From: an uncultured Thermococci archaeon
GTDB lineage: Archaea; Methanobacteriota_B; Thermococci; Methanofastidiosales; B48-G16
Length of the DNA: 49,631 bases
Direction of reading: 5' to 3'
NCBI GenBank assembly: GCA_964595645.1
Contig: CAZQQT010000013.1
Coordinates: 1-49,631 of the forward strand
Shown here: piece by piece, positions 9,575 to 49,631 of the stretch
Numbering within the stretch: the first letter of the stretch is position 1
Layout of the letters: each line of letters opens with the position of its first letter
Position numbers and translations under genes: made by a program
The notes under the pieces: generated by a model
Told to the model about the DNA's origin: nothing
The model's database searches: none
Seen by the model: only the letters and a program-made list of their open reading frames with translations

Positions 9575-9752
9575 AGTCTATTTCCTCCATAAAATATTGC
9601 ATTTGAATCCTATCATGACAAATATAAAAATGTTTTCTTTCTCATGATTCCTCTGTTAATATCTTGTTTGAGGAAAAAAGTATGAACAATCAGGTGATAA
9701 ATGCATTTTAGAAGGGTAAGGTATTTAAAGTAGGGGCTCTTACACTCCACTA

Positions 9753-9842
9753 GCAAAAGGCTGAAGAATGGATGCTCTAGTACGTTCATTTGGTTCAGTC
9801 CTTTTGTAAAAGTTCGGGCATAATGCCCGAGGAGTTGAAAAA
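9753..9842 (+). promoter_or_regulatory. Structured 5' UTR of the cold-shock gene (two hairpins)
   Basis: Stem caaaaggctgaa/ttcagtccttttg with inner aatggatg/cgttcatt; perfect stem tcgggca-taa-tgcccga next to the GGAG RBS; TATA-like tttaaa at about 9724. Confidence 0.55.
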
Positions 9843-10034
9843 ATGAAAGGAACAGTAAAATGGTACAACCCAAGAAGAGGATATGGGTTCATCGACGGTG
9901 AAGGTGAAGAAGATGTCTTTGTTCACCGATCTGCCGTGCCCGATGGAATCTTCCTCAATGAAGGGGACGAAGTTGAGTTTGAAGTTGAAGAATCAGAAAA
10001 AGGACCGAAAGCGGCAAATCTTAGAAAGTTGTAA
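9843..10034 (+). CDS. cspA: Cold-shock protein (CspA family)
   Basis: KGTVKWY...GYGFI, DVFVH.S, GPKA.N. Confidence 0.95.
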
Positions 10035-10118
10035 AGCACTCTATTATAAGAGGACGTGTTAAAACTTTCTCATTTTTCTCTTTTTATTTAATTTTATTTA
10101 TATTCGATAAATAAAGAA

Positions 10119-11381
10119 CTATGTAGTATTATTCGTGTTTTCGAAGCCCTCGATCACCTTTTGTGAGTATTTAAATACGAATGCTAGCGTAACAATTGCT
10201 GTACAGATCACCGCTCCAAGATTGATAAAATGAGCGGGAAAGATATCGAGCAGCAGACCCATTATCCCAAATCCTATGGGGATGATTCCCTGTGTACCAA
10301 CTTCCAGTACTGAAAATATTCGTGCTCTAAACTCCGTGGGGGCGAGTTTTTGGAGCTCAGTCATCAAGGGGGTATTTACAAAGGCATTGAATGATCCGAC
10401 AAATATAAATGTAGCTGAGAGTGCAAAAAACATCGTCCAACTCGCATAGCCCAGATACTGAATGCTTATTGGGAATATGAGGGCAGCAAATACAAAAAGG
10501 AGAGTAGTTTCGCCCAATAGTCCTTTGTTCAACAACTTTCCTGCTCTTTTTTTTGCTAAAAACGTCCCAATAATAACATTTCCAATAAGAAGTCCAATCA
10601 TAAATGAAGCCTGAATACCACCATACTGCTGGGAGGAGAACTGTATCACCTCTCTTGCCACGTAAGGAAGAAGGACACTAAAGACAGGAGATAAAAAGAA
10701 ATTTGTTATCAAGGCAAAGATAAGCAGAGTGAGAAGACTCGTATGGTTCTTTGCAAAAATAAATCCCTCTTTGAGGTCATCAAACGTTTTGTGTACTCCT
10801 TCAAGCTTCTTTGTTTTCTGTTCATAACTGATAAAGAACTCACTCACTCCAGAAGCAATGAAGGAGATGCCATTTACCAAAAACGCAAGATTTATGCCGC
10901 CTAATCCGTATATGACACCACCAAGTGCTGGACCCACAATGGCAGAGATACTGTTGATGGATCCAATGGTGGAGTTTGCCCTGTTGAGATCCTTTTCCGC
11001 TACAAGATCAGGGAGCATGGCCATGGTGGTGGGACCAAACAGTGCATTCATAAGTGAAATGACGAACTGCGCACCAAAAAGTACAGGGATAGTGATGAAA
11101 TTCCAGGAGGCGAGTAGTGCAAGGGACAAAATTACAGCTCCTCTTCCGTAATCCATCTATATCATGATCCATTTCCTATTCAGGCGATCCCCCACCACAC
11201 CGGCCAGAGGGTAAAGAATAAGCCGTGGTACCATCGTGATGATCATAAAAGATCCCATCATAGTTCCTGATCCTGTGAGATCGAGGATGAATAGCGGTAC
11301 CGCGATATCCTGTATCCCTGTACCTATCAATGAGACGAGTCGGCCTGTGGCATATAGCCAAAAATTTCTCCACTGCGTCAT
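10119..11381 (-). pseudogene. MFS transporter (DHA3/macrolide-efflux-like) interrupted by an in-frame TAG
   Basis: ORFs 11157..11381 and 10119..11156 are in frame and separated only by TAG (11157-11159), just after MFS motif A: GVVGDRLNRKWIMI*MD. Confidence 0.85.
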
Positions 11382-11534
11382 TAGATATCACTCTCTCTAG
11401 GAACAGTTCCTTTAAAAAGTTTACTAAAGAAAACTTCAAAATTATAAAAATAGACAAATTTATCATGAAATTGTATCATGACCAACAATGGTTCCATGTA
11501 CTCGCCCATGAAAAATGTAAAAAAAGTAGCTGAA

Positions 11535-12275
11535 TTAAATCGTTACTTTTGCTGAAACTTTGCTTGGATACGTGAGATGTATGCGAATCTCGTCATTGAG
11601 CATACTCTCCACGGTATTCTTCGCCTTCTTCGGTGTATTGTTATTTTCACTTATATGTGCAAGAAACACCTCGGCATTGTTACACATCTCGTTCAGTGCA
11701 GATCCACACTGTGTGTTGGAAAGATGTCCATGATCGCTGGCAATTCTATTTTTAAGGAACTCAGGGTACCTCCCGTTCCATAACATTTCCCTATCATGAT
11801 TGGACTCGAAGATATAAACATCAAGGTGTTTAAAGTAGGATAAAAGCCTAGAATCTACCGATCCAAGGTCTGTAGCCATGCCTATATCTCGATCCCCTTT
11901 GATAAGATATGCGACTGGATCTGACGAATCGTGGTTGGTGCATACCGGTGTGATCCGAAGCTCCTTTACTCTAAACTCCTGAAAATTTGTGAAAAGTGCA
12001 GGAACAATATTTTCTTCTATTCTTTGGTATGTTCTTTTGTTCATCAAAAATGGAACCTTGTATTTCCTGGAGAAGGGTCCAATCCCTCGAATATGATCGG
12101 TATGCTCATGCGAAATAAGTACTGCATCGACTTCGTGGGGATCGACACCTATTTGTGACAGTGCAGTTTCTGTATAGCGTAGAGAGAATCCAACATCTAC
12201 TAAGAGAGTCGTGTTCTCTGTTTTTACAAGAGTGCAGTTCCCTGCACTGCTGCTTCCAAGCACGCATATTTCCAT
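11535..12275 (-). CDS. MBL-fold metallo-hydrolase (YycJ/WalJ-like)
   Basis: LGSSSAGN, SHEHTDH, ESNHD, GHLSN, AHISENNN. Confidence 0.9.
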   Translation of the reverse strand: MEICVLGSSSAGNCTLVKTENTTLLVDVGFSLRYTETALSQIGVDPHEVDAVLISHEHTDHIRGIGPFSRKYKVPFLMNKRTYQRIEENIVPALFTNFQEFRVKELRITPVCTNHDSSDPVAYLIKGDRDIGMATDLGSVDSRLLSYFKHLDVYIFESNHDREMLWNGRYPEFLKNRIASDHGHLSNTQCGSALNEMCNNAEVFLAHISENNNTPKKAKNTVESMLNDEIRIHLTYPSKVSAKVTI

Positions 12276-12346
12276 TGGAGAAACATTCAAATAAGTATAT
12301 AAAAGATTTTTTGATTTCGAAAACTTTTTTTACAATAAAAGAAGTG

Positions 12347-13072
12347 TTAGAATACTTCTCCGCGCGTGTGGACGATGATTCCATTGTCCTCAATGCTGAA
12401 GGGATACTTCCCCATTGAAAAACTTGTTTCTCTCATCTTTCTCACGTAAAGAGCTCTTTCAAAGGTAGTACCCTTCTCTATAATTTCAAGCTTAATTACT
12501 CCTCGAGAAACAAACTCCTCCACCCCATATCGAGAGAATCCTTCTCCCATAGGTGTTTCCGTCGTGACAAAGGATGTCACTCCGATCTCAAGGAGAAGTG
12601 TACTCAATCTATAGATAGAGTTCCTTATTTCTTTTTCTGTTTCAAGACTTAGCCCAAGAGAAGGAATCGAATCGACAACAACTCTTTCTGCATCTATCTC
12701 TTTGGCTACTCTATTTATTTCAATTATCAGTGCATCAACATCCATCTCTATGAGCGAGTGTTTCTCCTTTGTACTTTTTTTCCTTAATTTGGCAGACGTT
12801 CCATCAATTATGGCCAGTTCATCCATATTCTCGTATTTTTTAAAATCCCATCCAAAGTTCTGCATCTCTCTTCGCAGATCCTCGGCTCGTTCCTCCAGCG
12901 TTACAAATATTCCATTTTGGTTGTAATCTTCTACCCCTTTATAGAGAAACTGGGAACAGAGTATTGTTTTGCCTGTGCCTGTACCCCCCACTACCAATAC
13001 ATTTGTTCCTTTGGGAACGCCCCCTTCCAAAATTTCATCGAGACCTGGTATTCCTGTCTTTATTTTCTCCAT
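12347..13072 (-). CDS. KaiC-like single-domain RecA-superfamily ATPase, intact Walker A
   Basis: TGIPGLDE.L.GG, GGTGTGKT, VTLEE, VVVDS, VRKMRET; ATG at 13072 follows AGGTGA. Confidence 0.9.
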   Translation of the reverse strand: MEKIKTGIPGLDEILEGGVPKGTNVLVVGGTGTGKTILCSQFLYKGVEDYNQNGIFVTLEERAEDLRREMQNFGWDFKKYENMDELAIIDGTSAKLRKKSTKEKHSLIEMDVDALIIEINRVAKEIDAERVVVDSIPSLGLSLETEKEIRNSIYRLSTLLLEIGVTSFVTTETPMGEGFSRYGVEEFVSRGVIKLEIIEKGTTFERALYVRKMRETSFSMGKYPFSIEDNGIIVHTRGEVF

Positions 13073-46056: not shown

Positions 46057-46478
46057 GACCGGAGTCGTGTAGAAGAGATTTTCCCACGCTCATCGGAGAG
46101 AAGATCGATTTTCACGATTTGCAGCTTCTTCATTCCCAACTTTCGCCTTTTCTCATTTATTTTTTCCGCGTTTTTGTAGGTTTCTTCTGTGACAAGAATG
46201 TAATCGGCATCTCTCTCCAGTGAAAATCCGTATGTATCATCTATTTTGATTATTTCGTAATCTTTTTTCTCTTTATGTCCTAAAGAACGTAAAAAATCCT
46301 TAATTTTTCTTTTCCGTTTGCTGTAATCCCATATTTTCTCAGCGTACTTCTTATCCTGCACCATCTCATCACTTGTGAGTCCTATCAATACGTACCCATA
46401 TTCAAATGCCTTCTTCAGGAAGTATTTATGTCCTTCATGGAGTCGATCGAACGTACCAGAGGCAATTATCGTTTCCAC
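46053..46478 (-). CDS. coaD: Phosphopantetheine adenylyltransferase (archaeal type)
   Basis: GTFD.LH.GH, IGLTSD, VTEET...A.KIN..R, ISSTR.R. Confidence 0.9.
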   Translation of the reverse strand: METIIASGTFDRLHEGHKYFLKKAFEYGYVLIGLTSDEMVQDKKYAEKIWDYSKRKRKIKDFLRSLGHKEKKDYEIIKIDDTYGFSLERDADYILVTEETYKNAEKINEKRRKLGMKKLQIVKIDLLSDERGKISSTRLRS

Positions 46479-47407
46479 ACGACCACCCCCACTGCAGCAA
46501 CGATACAGAGAAGTACAAGATATTTGAGAAAAGGATAAAGCGCAAAATACATGGTGATGGGTGTATAAAATGTGGAATCGAGCGTTTCAATCTCTTGTAT
46601 TAATCTTTTTCTTGTAACATTCTCAATTCGTGTTGTGTCATTAACAACAACAGAGGGAGTCTCTGAAAATCCATTCAGGTAGAACTCTTTGGAGTGCTGC
46701 GAGATATCTATCCACAGGATAGAAACAGTATTGTCATATTTCTCAGACGTTATTACCTCATTAACCGTTTTTTTCTCTTCTTCTTCAGTGTAGAATCCAA
46801 CAATTTTCACCGGGTTCTTCTCGTGGTAAAATGTTACTGCAGATTTGATCAAATCCTCCGTGATATTTTCTTCAAAGGAAAGCTCATTGACCGCCACTGC
46901 CGGTGTTTCTGAAAATCCAAAATAGAGATAGCTATTCCTATTAAGCTCGTAATCAAGGGGAAGCGTTGCTACCTCTTCTGTATCAATTGTAGAGAGGATA
47001 CGATATATTCTCTCGTACTCCTCTCCTTTATTATCGGCATCGTGAAAAAATCGTACAAGGACACCTTTAGGATGTGCAAAATGCTCTATTACCTCTCGGA
47101 GATCTTCAGCTGTAATACCTCCTTCCATTTTTATTTGATCATTGAACACGAGCCCTGGGGTCCGTATGAATCCATTGTTTTTGAACTCTCTGTATCCCTT
47201 CTCTGTAAACACATCGACCATCTCGATCTCCAGGATTTCACCGTATTCCTTTTTAAAATCCTCGAAGTAGCCTTTTACTGTCTCGCAGTGGCTGCAGTCT
47301 TCGGTGAAGAAAAAGGTGACCTTCACGTGTTGTTCTTGGTTGTTCTCTTCGGCAATTACTGCGCCGAGTATAAGCAAAAGTACGAGAGGTATCACATATT
47401 TTTTCAT
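46466..47407 (-). CDS. Membrane-anchored extracellular protein with three thioredoxin-like repeats
   Basis: Signal peptide; CSHC in the first domain only; repeated GF..TP..V.N motifs; C-terminal TM segment. Confidence 0.78.
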   Translation of the reverse strand: MKKYVIPLVLLLILGAVIAEENNQEQHVKVTFFFTEDCSHCETVKGYFEDFKKEYGEILEIEMVDVFTEKGYREFKNNGFIRTPGLVFNDQIKMEGGITAEDLREVIEHFAHPKGVLVRFFHDADNKGEEYERIYRILSTIDTEEVATLPLDYELNRNSYLYFGFSETPAVAVNELSFEENITEDLIKSAVTFYHEKNPVKIVGFYTEEEEKKTVNEVITSEKYDNTVSILWIDISQHSKEFYLNGFSETPSVVVNDTTRIENVTRKRLIQEIETLDSTFYTPITMYFALYPFLKYLVLLCIVAAVGVVVWKR

Positions 47408-47446: not shown

Positions 47447-48250
47447 TCATCCGACGGAAAGATTATACAATATCGACTGAATTTCTTTAAAAAGGCCCCA
47501 TACTTCTCTACGTCCAGAAAAATTCCCATACAATCGCTCAAATATATACTTTAAAGTATCTTTCTCTGTATGGTTAGCAAGTATTGCTATTATCGTTGAT
47601 AGACAGAGTGGATTCTTCTCCAGTGCACATGGGCAGCTCTCCTTTATATCTCCTCTGATCTTTGATATTCTTCCTCCATTCCACTCGATGCTTTTTTTCA
47701 AGAAATCGCATTCGTTTTCGGCTGATTGGAGGTTGTGTAAAATACCATAACCTTTTGCAGATTTTCTAATTGCTGTAGTAGATCTTTCTGCAATTGCAGC
47801 AAGCGTTGTTGATACAGCTGCACCTGTCTCTGCTACAAGTTTCCATCCACCTTTTTTTAGAACTTCTTTTGTTCCTACCCAAGCACCCATTGAGAGCCCA
47901 TCCCCTATATCCCAGGTCCATATGTCCCATGTATGTTTTATAGTTTTCCACTGTTTGTCTGCTTCACCTTTCCATTTAGTGTATTCTTCATTTGCAATTG
48001 CAAGTTCAGTTGCCCATTCTTCTTGATATTTCAGACGTTCTTCTAAATCGTCTATCATCGCTTTCACCTCGTCGTTATGTCTGCACGGACAGGGATCGCA
48101 GCAGCCCTCCCAACAGCCATTCTCGCATCCCTGACTGCAGTTTTCTCTTTGTTTCTCCGTTTCGGTGTACGCACAGTCATCAGTGCCGTAATCGTAGTAG
48201 TAGTCTCGGTACGTTTGGTAAACGACTTCAGAGTGCGGTTCAGTACTCAT
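47447..48250 (-). CDS. Cys-rich helical cassette protein A with variable amphipathic core (putative polymorphic toxin tip)
   Basis: Paralog of 49112..49631; reads through CPCALE into an unrelated tail; start ATG lies inside the upstream gene's end. Confidence 0.6.
   Translation of the reverse strand: MSTEPHSEVVYQTYRDYYYDYGTDDCAYTETEKQRENCSQGCENGCWEGCCDPCPCRHNDEVKAMIDDLEERLKYQEEWATELAIANEEYTKWKGEADKQWKTIKHTWDIWTWDIGDGLSMGAWVGTKEVLKKGGWKLVAETGAAVSTTLAAIAERSTTAIRKSAKGYGILHNLQSAENECDFLKKSIEWNGGRISKIRGDIKESCPCALEKNPLCLSTIIAILANHTEKDTLKYIFERLYGNFSGRREVWGLFKEIQSILYNLSVG
47618..48119. repeat. Direct repeat copy 1 (conserved flanks, divergent centre)
   Basis: 47618-47697 matches 49115-49194 at 79/80 nt; 48081-48119 is identical to 49593-49631. 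Confidence 0.92.
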
Positions 48251-48648
48251 TGTTGATCTCCTCGTTATATTTCCTATTCTTAATCCACATTAGAACTGGT
48301 GTCCCTATAAAAATCATTAGCACTACGAGCCATGCGAGTATTACTCCAATCAACTTGATATATCTTACGTAAACTTCACGGAGGTATCCCATCTTTGCAC
48401 AGACTTCGCCTAAGCTGTAAAATAAGAGTCCACATCCTAAAAGGGTATGTTCATAAAACTCCATATTGGATATTTCATCCTGTCTCGCAGTAACTACTAG
48501 AAACCATGCCCCTAAAAAAATAAGAAGCATCATCTCTTCTATGATCCAAGGAGGATCGCCGATTCTCCAACTCCAGAATACAGCAAAACTTATTAAAAAT
48601 ATAGAAAAGGAATAAAAAAATTCTTCTCCGTGTTCTTTTAAATCTCAT
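48240..48648 (-). pseudogene. Small multi-TM membrane protein (putative immunity) with a 1-nt frameshift near the start
   Basis: The 48533 frame stays open and hydrophobic upstream (FFYSFSIFLISFAVFWSW). The ATG at 48648, preceded by GTGA, is out of frame by one base; a T7 run lies at 48614-48620. Confidence 0.55.
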
Positions 48649-48776
48649 CGTTAATCACTTAATTCACCGTTTTACAGCAAGGTAGAGTGGTGTGGATGTG
48701 ACTCCAAAGAATATGGTCATATCGTAAGTATATTCCTCCTGTGAATGTTCTGCTAGCAGAGAGATAATCACGTCAA

Positions 48777-49106
48777 TCACCAAGTGGAGAGAGAACGCTC
48801 AAGATATAGGAGCGTACAAAGTGCCAAAAATACCAAAATCCAATATGGCGCATTATTCAAATGAAATACACCTTCTGCACTTAATATATCGAGTGTTATA
48901 AAAAAGGCACCTGTCAATACTATCCCTATGAGAAAAAAAAGGCATCTTTTTCCCAATTTCTTTAGATCAGTGAACAACACCGATAGTCCCAATATTATGA
49001 TCACTCCATTGCTTCTGTTAGCACCGTGGAAAACAGAAATAAAGAACAGTGCAACTATCAAGAAATAAAAAAAGTATTTTACGTAGTTTTTTTGTTCCTG
49101 CTCCAT
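48777..49106 (-). CDS. Small 4-TM membrane protein (putative immunity protein)
   Basis: Four hydrophobic segments in 109 aa; starts 5 nt after the cassette B stop. Confidence 0.7.
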   Translation of the reverse strand: MEQEQKNYVKYFFYFLIVALFFISVFHGANRSNGVIIILGLSVLFTDLKKLGKRCLFFLIGIVLTGAFFITLDILSAEGVFHLNNAPYWILVFLALCTLLYLERSLSTW

Positions 49107-49111
49107 TCATA

Positions 49112-49630
49112 TCACTCCAGTGCACATGGGCAGCTCTCCGTTATATCTCCTCTGATCTTTGATATTCTTCCTCCATTCCACTCGATGCTTTTTTCCAAAT
49201 TATCGATTTTGTTCTCGGTCGATTGGAGGTTGTGTAAAATACCATATCCTATAGTGCACTCTTTAGTTGTTGCAGCAGCCCTCTCTCCAACAAACCAAAG
49301 ACCTGCTGAGTATATGGTTGCACCTATTCTAGCACCTATGCTTTTAGCAACACTTTTACCTCCTTCTGTTGTTATCCATTTCTTAAAGGCACCCCAGCCA
49401 GTAACAGCACCATCTACAATATCCCAGTTCCATACTTCATACTGATGTTTTATAGTTTCCCACTGTTCATCTGCTTCACCTTTCCATTTGGTGTATTCTT
49501 CATTTGCTATTGCAAGTTCAGTTGTCCATTCTTCTTGATAATCCAAGCGCTCTTCTAAATTGGCTATCAACTCCTCCACCTCGGGATCATGACTGCACGG
49601 ACAGGGATCGCAGCAGCCCTCCCAACAGCC
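49112..49630 (-). CDS. Cys-rich helical cassette protein B (5' end beyond the window)
   Basis: Frame is open to the window edge (GCWEGCCDPCPCSHDPEVEELIANLEER...) and ends CPCALE*. Confidence 0.7.
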   Translation of the reverse strand, partial: GCWEGCCDPCPCSHDPEVEELIANLEERLDYQEEWTTELAIANEEYTKWKGEADEQWETIKHQYEVWNWDIVDGAVTGWGAFKKWITTEGGKSVAKSIGARIGATIYSAGLWFVGERAAATTKECTIGYGILHNLQSTENKIDNLEKSIEWNGGRISKIRGDITESCPCALE

Positions 49631-49631
49631 A
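49115..49631. repeat. Direct repeat copy 2
   Basis: See copy 1; the offset is 1497 nt at the left flank and 1512 nt at the right flank, so the centre is 15 nt longer here. Confidence 0.92.

Follow-up and report, generated by a model that had tools for sequence, protein, structure and literature searches.

What kind of system places two related open reading frames (ORFs) at the end of a contig, each with conserved flanks around a diverged core and with dissimilar small membrane-protein genes between them? The question is raised by positions 47447-49631 of contig C13 from an uncultured Thermococci archaeon, whose 1.97 Mb archaeal genome is assembled in 14 contigs; the window analysed here is the whole of C13 (49,631 nt). 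The last 2.2 kb of the contig carry, in minus-strand order, a helical-hairpin tip module (B), the transmembrane (TM) protein genes TM-III and TM-II, and a spare cassette (A). On balance we favour the reading that this region is one end of a polymorphic toxin-like locus, the proposed toxin/immunity function included. Its architecture appears to be that of polymorphic toxin systems, built from undescribed parts, and toxicity is a prediction. The original prediction of a polymorphic toxin/immunity array at this site stands for the architecture, for its absence from the libraries searched and for the exchanged middle of the modules; it does not stand for A, which has no membrane-protein gene of its own and lies behind a frameshifted TM-II.

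Two tip modules with a mosaic relationship

The paralogous pair, with the conserved flanks, the diverged core and all of the quoted motifs, lies on the minus strand where it had been predicted. B (49112-49631, minus strand) comprises 172 codons and has no start, its 5′ end being cut by the contig end, and A (47447-48250, minus strand) is a complete ORF of 267 aa that encodes a full hairpin. The two proteins are 60% identical (BLASTP, E 2e-74). At the DNA level the similarity falls into two repeats, one of 222 nt (47898-48119 and 49410-49631, 85% identity) and one of 176 nt (47618-47793 and 49115-49290, 84% identity), so that the flanks described as near-identical are highly similar and no more than that. 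The diverged core of A, which corresponds to the distal end of the hairpin, lies between these repeats at 47794-47897 (minus strand), and its counterpart in B at 49291-49409.

Silent sites separate the core from its flanks. In codon alignments the N-terminal flank has 85% nucleotide identity and a synonymous divergence (dS) of 0.35, and the C-terminal flank 91% identity and a dS of 0.17. The core has 46% nucleotide and 22% amino acid identity and a dS of about 1.7 over 51 aligned codons with one 5-codon indel. Synonymous differences occupy 26/39 sites in the core as compared to 14/63 in the flanks (Fisher p = 1e-5). The silent sites of the core are thus saturated, which selection on the protein cannot bring about, and the A/B pair is therefore a recombinant mosaic. 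Either the core would have been replaced or the arms would have been homogenised by gene conversion, and both routes would involve recombination. We found no donor for either core in this genome or in the loci that we fetched. The arms that A and B have in common are special to this pair and not a feature of the family.

The exchanged core maps to the far end of a modelled helical hairpin

The fold was approached with an AlphaFold2 model of A, for which nine sequences were aligned. The model is a single long antiparallel two-helix hairpin (helices at residues 60-133 and 137-205, about 70 residues per arm), with a pLDDT above 90 in the arms and of about 50 at the far end. A Cys-Pro-Cys motif precedes helix 1 (residues 54-56) and another follows helix 2 (residues 206-208). 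Judged from the model, both Cys-x-Cys motifs should sit at the base of the hairpin, where the pair could act as a clamp through metal binding or disulfides. The core that had been taken for an internal variable segment, in place of a C-terminal tip, would be internal in the linear sequence only: the modelled conserved ends meet at the base and the core forms the distal end of a hairpin, and the module as a whole is a C-terminal tip. Conservation on both sides of the core does not extend to the family either. What the members retain is the first Cys-x-Cys, the D-x-[ED]-V with which helix 1 starts and the terminal Cys-x-Cys; the arms and ends vary.

A Foldseek search of the hairpin against the PDB gave no match at E below 0.07. 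The structure search returned generic long hairpins only, with colicin Ia (1cii, Z 10.4) and the colicin E1/TolC entry 7nna (Z 8.9) tied with Smc, the dynein stalk and YscO. An Asp-Pro cleavage site at DPEV was considered and rejected: the residues vary between DxEV and DxDV and open helix 1, so that a helix cap fits better.

The tip probably belongs to a large secreted carrier

B is probably the C-terminal tip of a secreted carrier of about 950 aa and not a small gene. The last 55 nt of C13 (49577-49631, minus strand) recur without a mismatch, as reverse complement, in the opening 55 nt of contig C8 and end exactly at the DPEV codons; beyond this junction, whose motif the family retains, B and the C8 tip are unrelated. 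The starts of contigs C4 and C6 (minus strand) each hold 668 intact codons of proteins that are 79% identical, both cut at another common 55-mer and both beginning with an N-terminal hydrophobic signal-type helix. Two relatives encode such a protein in a single ORF. In the metagenome locus L016 one ORF runs from the carrier through TSP3 repeats to a hairpin tip, and in the same-genus genome G001 a 958-aa carrier ORF with a signal peptide ends in a different tip. We consider it highly probable that the assembly contains two tailless carriers (C4 and C6) and two headless tips (the end of C13 and the start of C8) with a collapsed repeat between them, the missing part being about 0.5 kb as judged from G001. 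A carrier with a signal peptide, for which a search had been suggested, is thereby found in part in the 668-codon starts of C4 and C6 and entire in the single ORFs of the relatives. The four contig breaks on either side of these genes all lie within the genes themselves, so that routine annotation would overlook the system.

The carrier model has three beta-rich regions, with residues 295-390 forming an immunoglobulin (Ig)-like sandwich (Z about 10), followed by an all-alpha domain. The order along the protein is signal peptide, Ig-like beta-sandwich domains, alpha-helical domain, Cys-rich pre-tip region and tip. In Pfam scans of the carriers of C4, C6, L016 and L025 the sole match above threshold was TSP_3, and the RHS/YD repeats that had been suggested are absent from these scans, as from the modelled beta-sandwiches and alpha domain. 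The TSP3 region weakly matches the models of myxobacterial TraB and MtsC. A reading of the carrier as a fusogen was rejected: the Foldseek matches to flavivirus E, a class II fusion protein, have template modelling scores of 0.08-0.16 at an rmsd (root-mean-square deviation) near 30 Å, and the 50 VIA-align matches listed include Ig-like sandwiches only and no flavivirus E.

A third carrier lies on contig C11 (locus L006, C11:56000-72000, positions 9745-12555, minus strand), where it is divided into three overlapping frames of 436, 361 and 245 aa. The same region is one frame in C4, C6, L016 and G001, and the split copy is either a pseudogene or an assembly error. It ends in yet another tip.

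Partner membrane-protein genes co-vary with the tips

TM-III (48777-49106, minus strand) encodes 109 aa with at least two TM segments by hydropathy, starts 5 nt past the stop of B and is the candidate partner, or "immunity" gene, of B. It is 44% identical to the N-terminal half of a 254-aa protein on C8 (E 2e-26) and, in a global alignment, 34% identical to the product of the gene that follows the L016 carrier tip; among tips from outside this genome, that of L016 is the closest to B. TM-II (48240-48648, minus strand) is a homolog of 136-aa genes on C8 and C11 (71-80% identity) and of L015 TM124 (37%, E 6e-12). Relative to the C8 and C11 paralogs, it has lost 2 nt in a T-run and is thereby broken; the remaining ORF is 97 aa long (48240-48533) and its stop overlaps the ATG of A. 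The deletion (48600-48625, minus strand) falls within a T-rich run at which slippage-type on/off switching is possible.

As had been noted from the sequence, the small genes between the copies are dissimilar to one another. Both come from families found again next to such cassettes at other loci, and homologs of the TM genes of the window adjoin tips in the contigs of another organism. We compared 13 non-redundant cassettes, drawn from this genome and from metagenome contigs of hydrothermal or sediment origin. In this set, with the exception of A, an intact tip always has a small multi-TM gene directly after it, overlapping or a few bases away. Tip identity correlates with TM-gene identity (Mantel r = 0.61, p = 2e-4), so that co-variation with the adjacent TM gene, which had been proposed as a check, is seen for the tips, A excepted.

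Tip exchange, spare cassettes and distribution

The carrier of G001 ends in a different, shorter Cys-flanked hairpin, which in the present genome occurs only as a spare cassette on C11. Between these related genomes, different tips are thus exchanged on one and the same carrier. The spare cassettes A (C13) and D (C8, a complete ORF) start inside the Cys-rich pre-tip domain, which is complete in the 305-aa gene of L016. On C11 a deletion remnant joins the N-terminus of a cassette directly to the last helix. Spare cassettes and remnants alike start at recurring points within the pre-tip region.

A itself is a spare cassette whose stop codon and partner gene have been lost. Homology to B extends as far as the CPCALE codons. 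The next codon is TGA in B but AAG in A, whose frame stays open for another 56 codons (47447-47617, minus strand). Part of this extension (~47517-47569) resembles a junction of gene tail and gene start at another locus (C11 at ~88.4 and ~89.4 kb, C5 at ~0.8 kb). This second repeat-broken locus (C11:88350-92399 and C5:1-1300) encodes a protein of at least 997 aa that runs off the end of C11, followed by small membrane-protein genes. A tail motif with the start of the next gene recurs there three times, and the end of C11 and the start of C5 are reverse complements of each other.

The tip family is very rare. A profile search against 1.84 billion representatives gave seven real matches: four in this genome, two on one ENA contig and one in a cluster that includes a protein labelled "Thermoplasmata archaeon". 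The tip was found in 0/60 related genomes and in 0/27 of the Thermococcales-like genomes searched, and a word-based homolog search with D and TM-II returned only proteins of the same genome. When related loci were searched for with P0007, most genome matches consisted of TSP3 repeats only. A, B, D and the TM genes match no known family in Pfam, NCBIfam or the ESM Atlas, and the literature search found no description of these families. McrA was not found, which makes it look unlikely that the organism is a methanogen.

In two metagenome contigs of 135 and 63 kb (L031 and L032), a C-terminal remnant of a P0007-type tip and the partner TM gene are all that is left at ~9700-10600, and the partner gene can apparently outlive its tip. 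The downstream edge of the C11 array (L006 5904-6314, minus strand) holds a gene for a 136-aa protein with three helix-turn-helix units, a possible regulator.

Surroundings of the locus on C13

The gene directly downstream of A (46466-47407, minus strand) encodes 313 aa. Its product has a thioredoxin fold (Thioredoxin_3, E 2e-11) in which the motif is CSHC, and carries a signal peptide as well as a TM helix at the C-terminus. The protein could service Cys-rich exported proteins; no such gene was seen beside the other loci that we looked at. Housekeeping genes lie beyond it. At the opposite end of the window, the 55-mer with which C13 starts (positions 1-55) is found again, inverted, at the end of C4; the two contigs therefore lead into a single further repeat that was not assembled.

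Comparison with known systems

The layout resembles that of the bacterial polymorphic toxins CdiA-CT/CdiI, Rhs and MafB (PMC3482391) in several respects: an exported carrier of large size whose C-terminal tip can be exchanged, a homology break at a short conserved junction, 5′-truncated spare tips downstream, a co-varying small gene after the tip, a patchy distribution and decaying copies. In contrast to these systems, the carrier, tip and partner genes of the present locus match no described family. We found neither RHS/YD nor haemagglutinin repeats, no releasing protease and no delivery genes of the T5, T6 or T7 type. The tip here is non-enzymatic, a helical hairpin with conservation at its two ends, and the host is an archaeon. 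Among the individual toxins, Tox-WTIP (PMC3482391) likewise has a non-catalytic C-terminal tip, which is predicted to act through two partly hydrophobic helices. Neither of its signatures, RxxR for helix 1 and W-x-[ST]-I-P for helix 2 (PMC3482391), is present in the tips aligned here. Tox-WTIP is proteobacterial. In the present tips the hydrophobic part is flanked by long coiled-coil arms with a Cys-x-Cys at each end.

Colicins Ia and E1 (1cii and 7nna) share the long antiparallel hairpin in a secreted bacteriocin with a functional element at the far end. However, the match is one of generic fold without sequence relation, and no colicin pore domain was found here in Pfam searches with E up to 1. 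The system nearest in host is VARTIG of the Thermococcales (PMC8416519), in what we infer to be the same archaeal class. It also combines a large secreted Ig-type protein, a recombination-hypervariable C-terminal part and variable membrane-protein genes that follow, and the question of toxin or recognition arises in both. The variable part is an Ig domain of an arCOG07710-type protein in VARTIG and a Cys-x-Cys-bracketed helical hairpin here, and no homology between the two was seen.

Proposed function and points against it

If the locus functions as a polymorphic toxin system, the carrier would be exported by the Sec pathway and come to lie on the cell surface. There the hairpin would insert its Gly/Ala/Trp-rich end into the membrane of a neighbouring cell, or use it to bind a component of that membrane, and damage the cell, and the cognate small membrane protein would protect kin. 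Spare cassettes such as A would serve as a reservoir from which the tip could be replaced at the conserved junction.

Several points weigh against this reading. Its functional steps (toxicity, membrane insertion and protection) are at present proposals. The join of B to a carrier whose 5′ part lies on C4 or C6 is a probable one, deduced from the assembly. The co-variation of tip and TM gene is also expected of any co-inherited operon. Over 19 aa, the cores of A and B reach a hydropathy of about 1.0 at best, less than transmembrane segments usually show, which leaves a "membrane-active" core unsupported as it had been worded; other family members reach 1.8-2.2. We found no processing protease and no known delivery machinery, and RHS/YD repeats are absent from the four carriers scanned. 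Some parts may also be decaying, as A has no partner and is read through, TM-II is frameshifted and the C11 carrier is frameshifted as well.

Alternative explanations

The most serious alternative is a non-toxic system of self/non-self recognition or adhesion, in which the hairpin end binds a matching membrane protein on kin and sorts cells without killing. We rate it as unlikely but as one to be reckoned with; comparable cases are the polymorphic recognition proteins of myxobacteria and the recognition hypothesis for VARTIG, a system of polymorphic-toxin-like layout for which the same alternative was raised (PMC8416519). No enzymatic or recognised pore domain was found in the present system, the ends of A and B show no more than moderate hydrophobicity, and carriers made of Ig-like sandwiches and Ca-binding TSP3 repeats are typical of adhesins. 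The weak matches of the TSP3 region to TraB and MtsC point the same way, and so do the long hairpins of colicins Ia and E1, which serve receptor binding, an analogy of fold only. Recognition accounts less well for a dedicated, co-varying membrane-protein gene directly after the tips, spare cassettes included, which is the signature of an immunity gene, and for the strongly hydrophobic Gly-rich two-helix ends of several family members.

Two further accounts concern the hairpin module itself, and we give neither much of a chance. The hairpin could be a structural C-terminal membrane anchor, with the TM proteins as its assembly partners and the additional copies as paralogs or duplication debris. 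Archaeal surface proteins are commonly tethered by a C-terminal element that is partly hydrophobic and preceded by a Pro/Thr linker, and such linkers precede the tips in C11, P0005 and P0006. An anchor is improbable nonetheless, as it leaves without reason the 5′-truncated spare cassettes, the break in identity exactly at one junction, the recombinant mosaic, the different tips on one carrier in sister genomes and the absence from most relatives. Similarly improbable is a stand-alone role for A-type cassettes, as small proteins made from an ATG of their own in coupling with TM-II and acting independently of the carrier. The overlap of the TM-II stop with the ATG and the MST that opens the following frame are kept in three copies (C13, C11 and C8), a Shine-Dalgarno-like GAGGAG lies upstream of A, and both A and D are complete ORFs. 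But A-type cassettes lack a signal peptide, their N-termini fall within a Cys-rich domain of which only carrier-type genes have the whole, and A lost its stop and its partner gene. On C8, moreover, no cassette comes after the frame opened by the overlapping ATG: this frame is not among the C8 ORFs of at least 60 aa, and the next gene is a TM gene.

Significance

The kind of system is known; the carrier, tip and partner families are undescribed in the libraries searched. New in this study are the silent-site proof of the A/B mosaic, the reading of the core as the end of a hairpin, the link of B to the carriers of C4 and C6 as drawn from the assembly, the different tip on the intact carrier of G001 and the co-variation count. 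Polymorphic toxins had been predicted in archaea, with nucleases as the commonest predicted tips, and were without experimental characterisation as of 2021 (PMC8416519). We suggest tentatively, as a doubtful but real possibility, that the present family represents a new archaeal class of non-enzymatic effectors: a Cys-x-Cys-bracketed coiled-coil hairpin on a large surface protein, with a distal end that would bear the specificity and could be exchanged without the arms, as in the A/B mosaic, and a membrane protein of its own for each end.

The modules are small (about 150 aa, with membrane proteins of 100-170 aa) and can be tested directly for contact-dependent antagonism or kin recognition. 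A and B amount to a natural experiment, the same arms with different distal ends, that can show which part sets specificity. If the effector class is real, it would be the first membrane-targeting polymorphic toxin of archaea, or else a toxin-free code of kin recognition.

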